A DNA stretch of 64,000 nucleotides, taken from positions 90,458,001 through 90,522,000 of the forward strand of contig OX597819.1 of assembly GCA_951406725.2 (NCBI GenBank), given 5' to 3'. The DNA is from Octopus vulgaris. Lineage: Eukaryota. Under the pieces are notes generated by a model. The model was not told where the DNA came from. It saw only the letters and a program-made list of their open reading frames with translations, and did no database searches. Positions within the stretch are counted from its first letter, which is position 1. The number at the start of each line of letters is the position of its first letter. The translations under genes were made by a program, and so were the position numbers. Of the stretch, positions 177 to 57,761 are shown piece by piece.

Positions 177-849
177 GTAAGTTTTATATTTTTTATGGGG
201 TAGCATGTATGGTGCATTTAAAGAATGTGGTATAGTGTCTACATGGCACAGCATAAGCAATGGTTGGAATCTAGCTGAAACATATAAACAGCTTGCAGGA
301 CATTTTTCCTTGAAATTTTACCTTGTTTGTTGAATATCTTATTTTTGATAAGACAGTTTTCCAATGAAGTAGACATGTTAGTTTGTTTCTCTCCTTCCTT
401 CCAACAAATGAGACAATAAGTTGGGATTCTAATTGCCTAGTCAGTGTAATAACAATATCAATCATTGATTATTTGAAGCCATGATTTTGCAATTAGCAGC
501 TACTGGTACATTGATTGACTTGCTTTGTTCTCCCTTTGTTTGATATCACTACTCTCAAGTGGTCATATGACTATAATTAAATTTATGCAAATAATCTTAA
601 ACAAGATATCCTTTTCAAAACAAATGTCAAAATTACTGGAATTGTTGAAGCAAAATAGCTCTGAGAAATTTAAACCCTTTTTTCCATTGAATGTAATAAG
701 AAGGGAAATGGTTGACATTTTGGACACTATTCCTTCATCAGAAGAGAAGAAAAAAATGAGAATAACTGAAAAAATTTTTTAAAGATATTTTTCTTTTAGC
801 TGATTGTAAGTTTGAACAGTGATTTATGGAAATTAATTTTTTTTTTAAG

Positions 850-997
850 GTCGTTCGCCTGTAGATGCTCGTGGTGGGCAGTTGGAAATAGCCGGAGTTG
901 TCGTTGGCAGTTGGGGACCAAATCTTCATGGTGCGGCCCGAGGCCGTGCATCTAACATGGCTCCACAAGTTATGTCAGTTGGAGGACCAGGCAAAAG
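850..997 (+). CDS. RNA-binding protein, exon B (GRSPVDARGGQLEIAG...MSVGGPGK)
   Basis: Poly-T plus AG acceptor (848-849), GT donor at 998. 148 nt, phase 1 to phase 2, open and GC-richer than the flanks. Confidence 0.85.
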
Positions 998-1103
998 GTA
1001 TTATAATTTCATGCACCTTTTAATTGAATATATCTAAAGTGTACTTATATTGATTGTTTTTTTTAAATAATGAAGCAACTTAATCAGATATTTTATTCAT
1101 TAA

Positions 1104-1224
1104 CCCTTTGAGCCTGACCTCCTGAACCTTATTTGGCCATATATCTGACACTCCACAGGTAGAGCGGTGCTATGGTATAAAGAAAAGCCATCCACTGGTA
1201 AACGGGTGTTATGGGCTCAAAGGG
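1104..1224. mobile_element. 121-bp piggyBac-type MITE
   Basis: TIR CCCTTTGAGCC / GGCTCAAAGGG with TTAA on both sides (1100-1103, 1225-1228). Confidence 0.85.
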
Positions 1225-1496
1225 TTAAACAAGTTTTTCATCTACAAAATATTTTTGACACATCAGCATGAATAAAATCTATGCTTTGCTGAGGAGGTTT
1301 AAGATCAACACATGCCTAGAGTTATCCCTAATACTTGCTGAACTAATTAAAATGTTAGATATCAGTCATTATGTTAATGTTTTTTTGTTTAAATATTTGT
1401 AGATAGATTATTGATGCTAGTCCATTTTTTTATAAATGGACAAAATATTTAGAGGTTGATTGATCTTTATCAAGACAAGTCCTTAATTTTGTTTAA

Positions 1497-2572
1497 CCCT
1501 TTCGTTACCAAACCGCCCAAAGCCGCCCGAAAAAAAATTTTGGTTTATGAGACCAAAGCCGCCCGAATTTACCTATTCATATTTAAATGAGAATATCAGA
1601 GCAAATCTCTTCAGTACATTCGTGAAAACACGTATTATACTTCGTAAACAGTTCAACTACAGTTTTGTACAATAATCGAAGTGTAATTTTAATTCCGTGA
1701 ATTTTGGGAGATTTTTTTCCGAAATTTGTTCCTATTGTTTTCAAAATTTGTAATTCTGACAAAAAATGGATACGAATTTCATTATATCAAGCAGCAAGTC
1801 AGAATTCGAAGGATTTTCTACTGAAGACCTTCATAAATCTAACTCTATGACTGAAAAAAAAAAGCATGTGGTATTTGATAATGAATCTGATGTTTCATTT
1901 TCCGAAAGTGAAAACAGTGAATCTGAGATCTCCGATAGCGATAAAGAAAACGAATTGGCACCTGAATGGAGTGAAAATTTAAAAACTGTTTTTTTCTGTG
2001 ATTTTTCTGAAGAAATTGGACCAAGCCACAGACTTTCCCAGAAGAGTAAAGCCTTAGGCTATTTCTCTTTACTTTTTCGAATGAGCCCATTTGAAATCAT
2101 TACGGCGAAAACGAACCGTTACGCTAAACGTAAACAAAGCGAAAGAAAGGATACTTTGTGGTTTCCCACAACCTTAAATGAAATTAAGACTATTTTGCCA
2201 TAAATATTATTATGGGTATCAGAAAGTTACCCAGAATAACAAATTCTATCGTAAAATTTTGTTGTATACCCAATTGAATATTAGCTAATAACCCATTTTC
2301 TATAGCGATGTTTGAACAAAATTTTAATAATTTTATATTTTGTGGAATTTACCTGTATCTACCTGCAATTAGAGTCACTTTGTGACAAAAATTATAGTAT
2401 AGAATTGGTTGAGAATATTTCATTAAATTATCTTCCAAAAATCAGATTAATATATCGATAAATAAAAAAGTTATAGTTGTTTAATGAAACCAGACTAAAT
2501 TTATGATTACGTTAGAAATTAATTGAAACACATAAGGAGTGTATTTTGGTCAGAAATATAGTAACGAAAGGG
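1497..2572 (+). mobile_element. Internally deleted piggyBac element with N-terminal transposase remnant (ORF 1766-2203)
   Basis: TIR CCCTTTCGTTAC / GTAACGAAAGGG and TTAA TSDs. Acidic N-terminus plus YFSLLF..TNRYA..W.PTT..EIK, continuing frameshifted as FAINIIMGIRKLPRI. Confidence 0.9.
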
Positions 2573-2882
2573 TTAAGAAATATTATCCAACTATCTAAAA
2601 GAATAGCAGCAATCTCACAGAAACATTCACACAAAACAAATCTACTTGTATTTTGAGCCAAAAAGAATCTTTATAACTCAATCTCCTGTGTTTGGCTAAT
2701 ACATTCCTAGATAGACTTGATTATAATGCTAAGTTAGGACTAAACCACAACCTGTTATAAAAGCTGAAAAGTAAAGAGTGGGGATCAGAGCATTACTGGC
2801 CAAATTTAAACACTTTTACACAAATACATTTAACAAAGTATAAATTTTGAAATATATTTCTTGTGAAAATTTTATTTTCCAG

Positions 2883-2970
2883 AGTATCTCGTAATGTTGC
2901 ATCAAACAGGGCAATCCGAGGAAAAGCTTCAACAGCACTTTATGGCATGGGGAGAGGATTAAGGCAATCA
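2883..2970 (+). CDS. RNA-binding protein, exon C (RVSRNVASNRAIRGKASTALYGMGRGLRQS)
   Basis: ttttattttccAG acceptor, GTAAGG donor at 2971. 88 nt, phase 2 to 0, in frame with exons B and D. Confidence 0.85.
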
Positions 2971-3004
2971 GTAAGGAACCTTGTATTTTCTTCAATCATT
3001 TATT

Positions 3005-3710
3005 CTTTTACATGTTTCAGTCATTTTGACTGTGGCCATGCTGGAGCAATGCCTTTTAGTCAAAGAAATGGAACTCTAGACTTATTCTTTGTTAGCCTGG
3101 TACTTATTCTATCAGTTTCTTTTACTGAACCGCTAAGTTACGGGGATGTAAACACACATCAGTTGTCAAGCGATGGTGGAGGGACAAACACACAAATATA
3201 TCATGGGGGCCCCCTTTGGTCACGACACTGACCATGGGATTGCACCTAGAAAGTTACCCTCCTAGTCTGGGCAAGGTTGTTTATGGAAGACCAGCAGTCG
3301 CCCATGCATACCGGCCTCCCCTCTGCACGCCTCCAGTGTTATCCAAAGAAAAGGCAACAGCCGATACAGCTTGGCACCCATGACCTCGCAACTCATTTCT
3401 ACAGCTGAGTTAACTGGAGCAATGTGAAATAAAGTGTCTTGCTCAATAACACAACATGCAGCCTGGTCTGGGATTCGAGATCACAACCTCACGATCGTAA
3501 GCTCAACGCTCTAACCACTGAGCCATGCACCTTCACAAATATATATATATATATAATATATACAATGGGCTTCTTTCAGTTTCCATCTACCAAGTCACAA
3601 GACTTTGGTCGACCCGAGGTTATAGTAGAAAACACTTGCTCAAGGTGGAACTGAACCCAGAACCATGTGGTTGGGAAGCAAGCTTCTTACCACACAGTCA
3701 CACCTCGGCT
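3005..3710 (-). mobile_element. Cluster of nested tRNA-derived SINE fragments
   Basis: Reverse-complement matches to the SINE at 28821-29218 and to the family at 39968-40230. Confidence 0.75.
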
Positions 3711-23682: not shown

Positions 23683-23712
<30 letters not shown>

Positions 23713-24845
23713 GATAAAGTTTTTAGTTGAAGTCGAGAGTCACCAATTATAACAGGCAGGTTATGATAAATCCAAAAGCATGCGAAGTAAAGTTTGAGGT
23801 CTCTTCATTGTTTAGTAGTAATTGCTGAGACAGATAGAATGACATTGTAAGGGACAGAATTAGAGCTATAGAGAATTCTGTGGTGTTGTCTCACAACTGC
23901 TGACAGGAATTTTCATTTCTCTTGCTGACTATTATATTCTAGCAGTCCTTTCCTTAACTAATTGAGTCATCACGAGCTGCCTCGTTCAGTTGTCAACAAG
24001 TGACTAACTGATTTTTGCTTGGGGTATGCTTGCTTATATAAAGATCCAGAAGGATAGATATATCATTGAGAACAATAGATTTAGTTAGTGGTCTTGTTAT
24101 CCCTATGCTAGCTTTTGGTGAAATAGAAGAGGTTAGAAAGAGTCAAGTAGTGAAAACATTATTTCAGCCTAGCTAAAGGCATCTGGAAAATGTAAAACTG
24201 TTGTCAGAGAAAAAAACCATTGTTCCACCGTGGGAAATGTTCTGTAGCAGTGTTAATTTAAATTTGGCTATGGTGGATCGAATCCACTTCATGCATGCAA
24301 GATTCACTACACACACTCCTCTTGCCAGTGAGCGTTCTGGTAAAGAAACAAACAATCGAAGGAAACAAAGAAACGCATGGTAAATGCCTTGGAATGTTTT
24401 TGAGCAGTGAAATGCGTCTGGTGCTGTTGTTGTGGTTAATTGCTGAGTTAGCAAGGACAACAGTGTAGCATGCTGGAGTGATGCGCGAGACAGGTCATTT
24501 TCTCTGTTAATTACTTGACCAAACGGGGGTCTAACAGGGTGAAATTATGTCTAAACATGAGCGCAGAGCATGTGATCATCCGACGTGCTTCGAGTCGTGA
24601 GAAGAATTGAGCTGACGCAGACATATTGCAAAACAAAGGAGTAGATGTGCATAACAGAGGTGCATGTGCTTGTGTACAATAGAGCTTACAAGGCCAAGGC
24701 TAATGCTAGTGCATTGATTACAAATACTGTGTACAGTATTGAATATGCCAGTGATCAATGCAGTAAGGCTGAGGCTGCCAGCCGGTGCATGAGGTATTAT
24801 ATGCCTCGATCGTGCAGGAACAAAAGTGTGGCATGCTGACGCATT

Positions 24846-25784
24846 GTTAGTTAGTTAGTTAGTTAATTTGGCTCAAAAGCAAATAGCAAGGCCATGTAGG
24901 GGGACATGGAGTTAAGTACAGGGTGGTGTTCTTGTAAAGAGTTCAGGCCACTTGAGGTCAAGGGAGGCTTTGAACAAAGTGGTCGTCGGCATCTTCACCA
25001 TCTCGTCTGGCAGCTTGTGCCACGGATCCGCAACCCGGAAGGAGAAAGCTCCTCTCCTTCGATTGAGATGAAATCGTCGCAGGTAGAGCTTTTCGGAATG
25101 ACCCCGCAGCCGACGCTCTGGAGCAGGAGTGAAGAACAGCTCTTTCGAGAGGTTACACTTTCCGCTTATGATGTTGTGGGCGAGAATGAGATCACCACGG
25201 CGGCGGCGTTTTTCAAGAGAATAAAGGTCGAGCGTCCTCAGCCTTTCTTCATAGGACAAATTTCTGAGACCATGAACCATGCGGGTAGCCAGCTTCTGGA
25301 CTCTTTCGAGATGCTGTATGTCTTTGAGGAGATAAGGAGAAGAGGCTTGAATCCCGTACTCCAATATGGGTCTCACCAGCGTGACATAGACTGGTAGGAA
25401 TATGGCTGCTGTGAGCATTCCGAATGACTGTCGAATCAAGAACAGAATTCCGCGTGCTTTGTTGGCAGCAAGGACGCACTGGGCCGAAAGCGAAAAGGAG
25501 GAATCCACCAAGATACCCAGGTCCTTTACCCGATCAGTCCTCTCCAGCAGCAGACGACCCGGCTCGAAATCAAGTTGAGTTGCAGGAGGAGAGCCAACAG
25601 GCAGATGACAGCACTTTGACACGTTCAGACACAGGTCCCATTCGTTAGACCACTTCCAAATTTGGTGGAGGCATCGACGAAAATCCTCTATATCACCGCG
25701 AGGAGCGACCAGTTTGATATCGTCGGCAAATAGAAGGGTGTGTTGCGTGAGGTCGTCGGGCAAGTCATTTATGAAGACTAAGAA
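24846..25784 (-). mobile_element. 5'-truncated CR1-clade LINE nested in the LTR element (ORF 24912-25763, RT C-terminal half)
   Basis: FINDLP, LLFADDIKL, DLGILVD, LVRPILEY, LERVQK.ATR, SYEERL and RGH motifs. (TAAC)n tail at 24846-24866. Confidence 0.93.
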
Positions 25785-26094
25785 CCAAGCAACTTTCTCT
25801 ATGTTTGCATGACCAACCTAGGGTCTTACAGAGATGAGTTGTGTCTACAAGGGTGCATTGAGTATGGAAAACAAGTGAGAAAGGCATGTATGGTGCATGA
25901 ATGTGACAGAGATAGCATTTATGTGTGCAGATACGTGCACAAGGCCAGGCACTGAGGAAAGGTACAAGCGTGTGTGTATGCAACAATACAAACGTTTGCA
26001 AAGTAAACGAAAAAAAGTACATGCAAAATATGAATAATGATAAAGAACATTCAAAAAGATATACACACGAATTTAGCTGTTTTAGTGAAACGAG

Positions 26095-26190
26095 TCATCG
26101 CAGAATTTGTGCATCGCGGAATGTGTGCATCACTGAATGTGTGCATCGTGGAATGTGTGCATCACGGAATGTGTGCATCGTGGAATGTGT
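26095..26190. repeat. 16-bp tandem repeat (gcatcgtggaatgtgt) x about 6
   Basis: Read directly from the sequence. Confidence 0.85.
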
Positions 26191-27650
26191 GACTCATAAA
26201 CAAATGTTAGTGTACAGTGCAAAAAGAACAATAAAATAAGCAAAAATAACAAACCTAACTGAAAATAGTATCCTTTGTTAAAAGTCTACAGCTGAAAGTG
26301 AAAAGAATATGTGCATGCAAGTAAAAATCGTTGTTGAATGTCTATGTGAGAGTCTTATGTACATGCAAAAGTTCATAGACAATGCAGGGTTTGTACGTCG
26401 GGACAAGACGAAAAGCGTGTGTGTGCCAGAAAGGTTGCTTGTGTGGGCTTCCGTATTTTCTTCCAGCTAGTTTCTGGGCATGAAGCTGTTGAAATGTTGC
26501 GCTTATAGGCTTTTATGGTCGGCAGATACCTTGTGCGTCAGCAGTGTTGCATCTTGGTGGTGACGAAGGTTGTCATTCGTTTTTCTTTGGTTTAGCGACT
26601 GTAGATATTCTAGTTCTTTAGTTCGAATCAGTAAAAATGCAGCGGCAAGTAGCATCGGAAGGTAGTAATTCTCTTTACATGGGTTCACCAAGTTGTTGGT
26701 AATGCAGCTTCAGAAGGCATCGATTCTTTCGCTCGGGTCGACAATTGTGACTGTTGGTAATGCAGTTTCAGAATTCTTTTTCACGGGGTCACCAATTGTA
26801 ACAGTAGAAGAATTGATTTGTTTTGTTGAAGTCGAGGGACACCAAATGTAACGGTAAAACTTTGTAAACAATATTATGAATTTGTCGGAGTCACCAATTG
26901 TAACGGGAGATATGGATTAGTAAATATTATTATTATGATGTCAGGGTCAACAGTTGTGACGATAAAAAGTTGTTATAATCACATGTAAAATGTGAAAGAT
27001 GAACAATGCATGAAGTTTTATCGAAGTGATTATTTACCATTACGTTACAAATACCTTGCCTCGACGAGCAGGTTTTGATACATCCAAAAGTATGTGAAGT
27101 AAAGTTTGTGTTTGTGTCCTCTTCATTGTTTAGTAGTAGTAATTATGGAGTCAGATAGAATGATGTTGTAAGAGAACAGAATTAGAGCTAGTGAGAATTG
27201 TAGGGTGTGGGACGTTGCTGACGGTAAACTTCATTTCTCCCTCTGACCAAGGTTCTAGCTGGCCAGCCAGACTACGTTCTCACTGAGTTTGTCACCGAAC
27301 GGTCACTATCTCCGTTGAGTTGTCATGACTGTGACAAACTGACTTTTGCTTGGGGTGTGCTTGCTTATATAAAGATCCAGAAGGATAGATATATCATTGA
27401 GAACAATAGATTTAGTTGGTGGTCTTGTTATCTCTATGCTAGCTTTTGGTGAAATAGAAGAGGTTAGAAAGGGTCAAGTAGTGAAAACATTATTTCGGCC
27501 TGGCTAAAGGCATCTGGAAAATGTAAAACTGCTGTCAGAGGAAAACCATTGTTTCACTGTGGGAAAAGTTCTGTAGCAGTGTCAATTTAAATTTGGCTAT
27601 GGTGGATCAAATCCACTTCATGCATGCAAGATTCACTACATATCTATATA

Positions 27651-31558: not shown

Positions 31559-31995
31559 AACCTCCGAAAAACCTCTCTTGCCAACCTCTGGAAAACCTCT
31601 CTCGCCAACCTCCAAAAAACCACTCTTGCCAATCTCCGAAAAACTTCTCTTGCCAATCTCTGAAAAACCTCTCTCACCAACCTCTGAAAAACCTCTCTTG
31701 CCAACCTCTGAAAAACCTCTCTCACCAACCTCTGAAAAACCTCTCTCGCCAATCTCCGAAAAACCTCTCTTGCCAACCTCTGGAAAACATCTCTCGATAA
31801 TCTCCGAAAAATCTATCTTGCCAATCTCCAAGAAACCTCTCTTGCCAACCTCTGAAAAATCTCTCTTGCCATCCTCTGGAAAACCTCTCTCGCCAACCTC
31901 TGAAAAATCACTCTTGCCAATTTCCGAAAAACCTCGCTCGCCAACCTCCGAAAAACCTCTCGCCAACCTCCGAAAAACCTCTCTCACCAACCTCC
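31559..31995. repeat. 24-bp minisatellite (cctctgaaaaacctctcttgccaa) x about 18
   Basis: Read directly from the sequence. Explains the repetitive ORFs in several frames. Confidence 0.95.
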
Positions 31996-32155
31996 AACAA
32001 TCTCTCCCTCCTCCAGCCGACAGTTTTTTGTACTTTTCACAACAGAAAATACACCTTTTGTGGCAGTTATAATGAAATTGCTTTTTTATATCAGAGTAAT
32101 AAGGCGTTTAAATAGAACATCCTTACCCCTGGGAATTACCGGGAACACCAGCTAG
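31996..32155 (+). mobile_element. Helitron-like 3' terminus adjoining the minisatellite
   Basis: Imperfect GC hairpin ccctgggaattaccggg, then aacaccag-CTAG-T (32152-32156). Confidence 0.5.
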
Positions 32156-57384: not shown

Positions 57385-57761
57385 GGAAAAACTTACTTTT
57401 GTACCCCACCCCCATAAAATTTTTTTGAAAAGATATTACACATGGCAGAAATTTGATTTCCTTCCATGTCTTATAATAAAGATGAGAAAGTCATAAAAAT
57501 TAAGAATTTCTATTAAAAAACTTCATTTCTGTATTATGTATATTCCTGTCCCAATTTGCCCTACGTTAAGGCCTAAATTGCCTAATTATGAAATTTGGGA
57601 CATGAATATACATAATACAGAAATTAAGCTTTTTAATAGAAATTCTTAATTTTTATAACTTTCTCATCATTATTATAAAACATGGTAGGAAATCAATTTT
57701 CCACTATTTGTAATATTTTTTAAAGAAAGGTTTATGGTGGGGTACAAAAGGAAGTCTTTCC
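57385..57761. mobile_element. 377-bp foldback MITE with GG...CC termini and 8-bp TSD
   Basis: TSD caaagtac (57377-57384, 57762-57769). Inverted arms of about 170 bp. Confidence 0.9.

Follow-up and report, generated by a model that had tools for sequence, protein, structure and literature searches.

In textbook accounts, an LTR element is primed at a single site, which fixes a single LTR end. Retroviral vectors built with two primer-binding sites (PBSs) reportedly show frequent initiation at both, to go by the title of a 2004 study by Voronin and Pathak. Among natural elements, the CsRn1 clade of Ty3/gypsy (CsRn1, PwRn1 and AgCR) combines a tRNA-Trp PBS with a 4-bp target duplication and a CHCC Gag, according to the available part of its description (PMC2582038). 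For Ty1 and Ty3, the accessible text reports a bipartite PBS and dead-end plus-strand DNA that runs into the tRNA (PMC5371799), and for HIV-1, the portion of the source at hand describes copying of the tRNA primer that continues beyond m1A58, with minor plus-strand products that extend to modified base 37 (PMC13191261). Here, we analyse a 64,000-nt stretch of Octopus vulgaris DNA (the window), in which an LTR element carries six PBS-like sites in a row. We denote the repeated units rungs and the row a ladder. Our preferred reading, which we consider probable, is that the element is primed at alternative rungs and that rungs are born by reverse-transcriptase slippage, as a ratchet, and not by self-insertion.

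An earlier note on this DNA had described six PBS units on the minus strand, and the ladder is confirmed by position, tRNA match, a rung scorer and three independent runs (Table 1). Successive sites start 56, 52, 50, 51 and 53 nt apart, and the PBS match contains a one-base bulge or slip in rungs 3 and 5. The LTR-end motif that the note placed ahead of each PBS is present in rungs 1–5, as GT(T/C)ACA followed by 2 nt, and rung 6 has no clear hexamer. The scorer, fixed at ≥13 of 19 and run on both strands, gave five matches in the 295-nt ladder versus three in the remainder of the window (128,000 positions). Because each of three independent public runs has one contig that reproduces 26690–27015, with 0, 0 and 2 differences, the ladder is no assembly artefact; a contig from one run presumed to be RNA covers 26686–26895 and is not counted as evidence. 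The ladder goes unreported by Tandem Repeats Finder at a score of 30 and so does not qualify as a simple tandem repeat. The note was right that spacers 4 and 5 duplicate one another (pairwise p = 0.001), but its view of the three upper spacers as unrelated fails for spacers 1 and 2, which belong to one class and are parsed as AA (pairwise p = 0.035). Rung 1 has a degenerate PBS whose mismatch adjoins the priming end, and rung 2 gives the best predicted tRNA duplex (−25.1 kcal/mol). The start of rung 4 resembles the PBS-leader of coding relatives (about 30 nt, 87–94%). Rung 5 has a second tRNA-complementary box at 26710–26718 (p = 0.002), which in rung 4 is shortened by an 8-nt deletion.

Table 1 Features of the element in the window (PBS start, first position of the PBS-like 13-mer on the minus strand; match, ungapped match to the complement of host tRNA-Trp(+CCA))
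Feature	Coordinates	Strand	PBS start	Match	Remarks
5′ LTR to first LTR-end hexamer	26955..27640	-			starts TGTAGTG
TATA-like box in 5′ LTR	~27363-27372	-
Rung 1, class A	26905..26960	-	26952	11/13	GTCACA end; AT-rich spacer
Rung 2, second class A copy	26853..26904	-	26896	12/13	GTTACA end
Rung 3, class C	26803..26852	-	26844	8/13	GTTACA end; bulged PBS
Rung 4, class F	26752..26802	-	26794	11/13	GTTACA end
Rung 5, class G, paralogue of F	26696..26751	-	26743	8/13	GTCACA end; decayed PBS
Rung 6, class Z	26678..26695	-	26690	9/13	last PBS-like site; internal region next
Internal region	24312..26677	-			common to other family copies; partly to non-autonomous element L215
16-bp tandem repeat	26096..26191	.			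in internal region; copy number varies across family
LINE fragment, 4-bp-repeat tail	24846..25785	-			later insertion into element
Polypurine tract	24312..24326	-			resembles those of coding relatives
3′ LTR, U5 partly deleted	23710..24311	-	23745		own class C rung

Judged by its sequence, the element appears to be a non-autonomous LTR retrotransposon, as the note had proposed: it has two TG...CA LTRs, a PBS and a polypurine tract, and no gag or pol of its own. The only frames of at least 120 aa are in the LINE insert, apart from a 123-aa frame at 24173–24544. The LINE fragment, which has a weak RVT_1 match under the Pfam cut-off, is absent from other family copies, and the element measures about 3.0 kb without it. 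The note had placed the LTR at 27068–27640, but 27068 is merely where the alignment with the deleted second LTR stops; the LTR runs from 27640 to at least 26955. Contigs in three public runs break off at 27640. Outside the PBS region, the internal region shows no DNA-level similarity to the coding relatives (tblastx results comprise the best 20 matches); L003 and L004 have a much expanded version of its 16-bp tandem repeat. A TA microsatellite and a SINE adjoin the 3′ LTR where it stops, at about 23710, and this copy has no recognisable target duplication. Its LTRs are 95.3% identical in U3, where the best match of either among other tested copies is 93–94%, and 72% identical in a segment on the R side, a value that falls short of the 5th percentile for unrelated pairs; the copy looks like a hybrid. 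Elsewhere, the window holds a minisatellite (31559–32006; about 19 copies of a 24-bp unit), both strands of which have long open frames, and a MITE-like inverted repeat of 149 nt, 87% complementary, with arms 34 nt apart (57409–57740).

The ladder is a family trait. Across the 2.8-Gb genome (227 contigs), a DNA search gave 43 matches to family copies, and exact matches number 95 for a 19-nt rung-A motif and 210 for a 22-nt U5 motif. The note had suggested counting PBS units in genomic copies; all 23 of the 5′ ends with intact U5 and internal region have two to six rungs each. A rung consists of a GTTACA-like LTR end, a tRNA-Trp PBS and 20–45 nt, and we name the classes A, B, C, D, E, F/G, T and Z. 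In this notation, the window ladder is A A C F G Z, and other copies have ADEZ, ABEZ, ACDEZ, ACDFZ, ACDFEZ, ABCDFZ, DDDEZ and FZ. There is mostly one order, with skips and local duplications (class D is in triplicate in L245), and the close paralogues F and G are swapped in L009. Because rung classes and their order recur across copies, the ladder is neither unique to this locus nor one decayed repeat; the host tRNA-Trp matches as well, and all three outcomes that the note had named as contrary to its reading are thus absent. Metagenome contigs scanned for two linked rungs gave no match. Other LTR families of the same genome have short ladders (L221, L222, L223, L225, L226, L257, L260, L262 and L265), of two or three rungs, in which the first spacer is a near-perfect tRNA-Trp copy of 24–50 nt; in the first five of these loci the copies measure 24–32 nt. 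A 909-aa frame in L226 was rejected as a helper gene, since it has a LINE-type reverse transcriptase. Segmental duplications multiply single insertions (L232–L235, L228/L229, L126/L149 and L213/L214).

The complementarity of the PBS to the 3′ end of host tRNA-Trp is borne out by genomic tRNA-Trp genes: the 3′-end pattern has 39 genomic matches versus none for a control pattern, and ARAGORN called tRNA-Trp(CCA) in two of six submitted loci. About 16 of the gene matches cluster at G000:C6:58378997-58461520. Pairing with the tRNA 3′ end is predicted to give duplexes of −20 to −25 kcal/mol for exemplars of classes C, D, E, F and G, −25 kcal/mol for the PBS of a coding relative, −18 kcal/mol for A and Z, −14.1 kcal/mol for window rung 5 and −6.5 kcal/mol for B. 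In addition to the ratchet, selection may act on the ladder, which would capture more tRNA-Trp and helper reverse transcriptase or would survive the decay of a single site. The universal retention of several rungs in intact 5′ ends, versus a single PBS in 12 of 12 coding-type relatives examined, and the recurrence of ladders in other families of this genome point that way. The first seven PBS bases of classes A–D are also more alike between copies (0.89–0.96) than the spacers (0.73–0.78), in a comparison that is weak and mixed by region, with class A loci sampled via their PBS; in E, F and G, however, the PBS is no more alike than the spacers, and the D box stands at 0.86 versus 0.80 for its neighbours. 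Many rungs, such as B and window rung 5, have decayed, and the ratchet alone already predicts that rungs persist. We hold such selection to be possible, if rather doubtful.

Family copies end at different rungs. We assembled 110 distinct ladders starting with A, from 94 of the 95 rung-A motif sites and from DNA-search and LTR-end-plus-PBS loci; the set consists mostly of rung-A-pattern loci, counts L202 twice and includes a few, among them the window, on which the parser stopped early. Of these ladders, 104 stop, 84 of them at a hexamer at least 5/6 like GTTACA, versus 134 of 1,768 control positions (7.6%). Of the 58 LTRs that have both ends defined and lack an internal region upstream, 31 are flanked by an exact 4-bp target duplication, or 42 if one mismatch is allowed, against a permutation mean of 2.7 and maximum of 10 (10,000 permutations); it is absent in exact form from 27. 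The duplication accompanies 20 of the 35 LTRs that end after A and 11 of the 23 that end after longer ladders (AA, AB, ABC, ABD, AC, AD and AT), compared with 1/58 at the inner first rung and none for 3-bp and 5-bp offsets. Flanks of TA or CA type, in which chance matches are easier, occur at 21 of the 58 LTRs, and outside them 23 of 37 duplications are exact; these 21 5′ flanks suggest that the family favours TA or CA microsatellite targets. A second sample, 30 of the 210 U5-motif sites chosen regardless of ladder and read by eye, has LTR ends before A in 5, after A in 12 and later in 11, with one interrupted and one continuing into the internal region. The several integrase ends that the note had envisaged are thus found in integrated copies.

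Could these ends have arisen after insertion? Microhomology deletion from a 5′ rung to the end of the 3′ LTR would keep the duplication and would account for single LTRs that have one, including those with a tRNA copy, and rung ends have 6–11 nt in common with the LTR end. Yet at least two rungs remain in 11 of the 30 ladder-blind LTRs, too many given the competing 600-nt LTR homology, and intact 3′ LTRs behind a polypurine tract, which such deletion leaves unexplained, vary likewise; we consider this route very unlikely. These true 3′ LTRs end without any rung in L141, after A in L228, after AC in L138, L143 and L246, and after ABC and a short rung in L278. The two ends of one copy also differ: L138 has ACDEZ at its 5′ side and AC at its 3′ side, with LTRs that are 93.8% identical and have private variants in common, and the 5′ and 3′ ladders are AFGZ and A in L130, ACDEZ and A in L139, and ACDFEZ and none in L141. 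This paired comparison leaves out L228/L229, whose LTRs are 71% identical overall (L228 serves solely as a 3′ LTR end), L133 and the SINE-interrupted C29 copies L232–L235. As stops at varied rungs come with target duplications, and as the two LTRs of a copy mismatch, several rungs have served as the integrase end. If the row were a target or decoy for fragments from the tRNA-Trp 3′ end, an integrase end in front of each site would be needless, yet every site has one, and such ends are used. The array reading would draw on the fact that the predicted RNA has, towards its 5′ end, several sense-strand sites that are complementary to the 3′ end of the tRNA; we give that reading hardly any credence.

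Under the established scheme for LTR elements, the PBS that primed fixes the end of the 3′ LTR, two bases ahead of it. The variable 3′ ends therefore bear on priming, which is read here from integrated copies, and the note's suggestion of several priming sites gains support to that extent. If each lineage had one working PBS, with upstream rungs as U5 fossils, downstream rungs idle and ends that track subfamilies, then priming at D or F could account for all ends after A, AB, AC and ABC; rung A, moreover, is nearly always degenerate and lies within the LTR. However, the LTRs of L043, L161 and L173 extend one to three rungs beyond a class D site with a 12/13 match, L107 and L169 end after D or E with D in place and have exact duplications, and L139 and L141 end before D although their 5′ ladders contain it. 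Because ends fall both past D, with D present, and before it, at least three rung classes appear to have primed, and we judge a single PBS per lineage unlikely. Strand transfer may add variation of its own: in L246, R-U5 is 98–99% identical between LTRs, yet rung C is in the 3′ LTR only. This case and the LTR mismatch of the window copy could both be explained by two-RNA copying or by an out-of-register transfer, and later gene conversion is also possible.

The origin of rungs is suggested by copies of the tRNA primer itself. Read-through was sought with a 24-nt pattern that combines TGG with the tRNA-Trp complement beyond position 58. Of its 54 matches, 41 were examined; the omitted ones are ten without TGG that resemble tRNA genes and three others. 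The 41 tRNA-Trp copies reach positions 26–53, most commonly 38 (6), 45 (5) and 48 (5). A new LTR end follows within 45 nt in 7/41, and a further PBS within 60 nt in 7/41. Among the first 30, the LTR end of the locus itself is re-copied exactly (≥8 bases) after the tRNA copy in four, versus 0.17 expected. In L069, L081 and L258, of sister families, an LTR whose start is confirmed by homology is followed by PBS, tRNA copy and LTR end, with an exact 4-bp duplication. L089, of the ladder family, has a tRNA-copy rung after A and a duplication two bases short. LTRs of the L069, L081 and L258 type could also be one-step deletion products, and re-priming is not proven by them. L092, L070, L074 and L076 (~1500) join an LTR end, a tRNA-Trp copy and an inverted LTR-end copy; L092 switches to sense tRNA sequence, and a hairpin junction results.

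Such joins bear on the note's proposal of successive self-insertions, here beside the PBS and followed by deletion. One tandem arrangement of internal region, LTR, ladder and internal region (L237) is what self-insertion would produce, but rungs keep only the last 6–20 nt or so of the LTR end, new rungs consist of a tRNA copy and an LTR end, and a whole nested LTR within the ladder was not noticed among the 23 5′ ends. We regard self-insertion as extremely improbable. Older rungs may preserve traces of the primer. Classes D, F, G and, weakly, Z have a box complementary to tRNA positions 39–50, 10–13 nt after the PBS (p = 0.0008–0.018 in a register-anchored test that was designed after the box was seen). 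The same test found no tRNA-derived spacer in classes A, B, C and E, and unanchored local alignment of ladder spacers with the tRNA complement gave nothing significant (p = 0.06–1.0). By analogy with Ty1 and Ty3, the second box may be a working second pairing site, or it may be a relic of read-through. L227 resembles a tRNA copy rejoined to a template rung at the second box, which fits either.

We propose the following course. Priming at rung n would carry rungs 1 to n−1 into the new 3′ LTR and make the GTTACA of rung n the integrase end, and the 5′ side would retain the whole row whichever rung primes. Plus-strand synthesis would overrun its stop into the tRNA primer or the leader and slip back onto the last 6–20 nt of U5, and the slippage product would be a new rung. 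Out-of-register strand transfer, or copying from two different RNAs, would delete or duplicate rungs and keep their order. Since every rung carries its own end and primer site, additions would be tolerated and would accumulate as a ratchet, in which old upstream rungs would decay to ordinary U5. In Ty1 and Ty3, the PBS is not inherited from the tRNA, as the consulted part of the source has it (PMC5371799), and with a PBS of that kind rungs could therefore diverge.

The enzymes would be supplied by CsRn1-like Ty3/gypsy elements of the same genome. Exact matches to the LTR end plus PBS number 27, and several open into reverse transcriptase, RNase H and integrase frames and a CHCC Gag. The Gag motif (CX2HX9CX3C) is found in the putative helpers L209, L213, L214 and L218 and the order reverse transcriptase, RNase H, integrase in L209, L212 and L217; a motif pattern for protease gave no match in the putative helpers. 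Coding relatives and the ladder family have TGTAGTG...GTTACA ends, the PBS, the polypurine tract and 4-bp duplications in common, the last being present in relatives L210, L214 and L215. Judged from the shared termini only, these relatives are likely the helpers. L215 also contains, at 561–3370, a young non-autonomous element with LTRs that are 99% identical, a 4-bp duplication, helper-type LTRs and one 18-nt PBS; its internal sequence recurs in the ladder family and may correspond to a packaging region. The leaders of L208–L219 have, about 20 nt past the PBS and behind an A-run, a 7–9-nt match to the T-stem/variable-loop region of tRNA-Trp, possibly a second pairing site.

Hundreds of integrated copies form a natural record of alternative priming, of tRNA read-through that reaches the genome and of two-template copying, and this record can be read by comparing 5′ with 3′ LTRs. 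It suggests concretely how U5 can grow and how PBSs turn over, and LTR finders will mis-set the ends and ages of ladder-type families. More tentatively, and with less than even confidence, we suggest that the ladder is a self-extending, order-preserving primer cassette, with rungs gained by copying the element's own tRNA primer, used interchangeably, the choice written into the daughter 3′ LTR, and selected by winning primer and enzyme from single-PBS helpers. If so, primer choice would set LTR length, and old primer sites would be absorbed into a lengthening U5.

A literature search, with subscription journals, Repbase and supplements outside its coverage, found no natural ladder of LTR end plus PBS. 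The present data supply family-wide rung counts, target duplications at several rungs and new-rung intermediates. Two-PBS retroviral vectors are laboratory constructs, whereas the ladder is natural, heritable and variable in length and has an integrase end for each site. The CsRn1 clade resembles the ladder family in its tRNA-Trp PBS, 4-bp target duplication and TGT...ACA ends; however, the available description mentions one PBS, and the ladder element has no gag/pol and two to six end-plus-PBS rungs (PMC2582038). Because it lacks gag, with the CHCC Gag motif absent, we do not file it as a CsRn1 member. Ty1 and Ty3 likewise have a second tRNA-pairing box, but, in the text at hand, one priming site and no repeated LTR ends (PMC5371799). 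Drosophila gypsy has two PBSs, of which the second is located elsewhere and dispensable, and no repeated LTR ends in the portion of the report available (PMC1635307). HIV-1 read-through, as far as the accessible text goes, is seen as non-productive and stops at position 37, whereas here such copies have entered the genome with a new LTR end attached, and 38 is the commonest stop (6/41) (PMC13191261). TRIMs, Helenus and Cassandra are, in the part of the source consulted, also non-coding LTR elements that are mobilized in trans and have a PBS in common with their helpers (PMC10886601). TRIMs, however, are shorter than 1,000 bp, against about 3 kb for the ladder element, and in place of the tRNA-like LTR sequence of Helenus, or a tRNA-like promoter, the ladder element shows short antisense matches of 9–13 nt at its rungs, tied to the PBS (PMC10886601).
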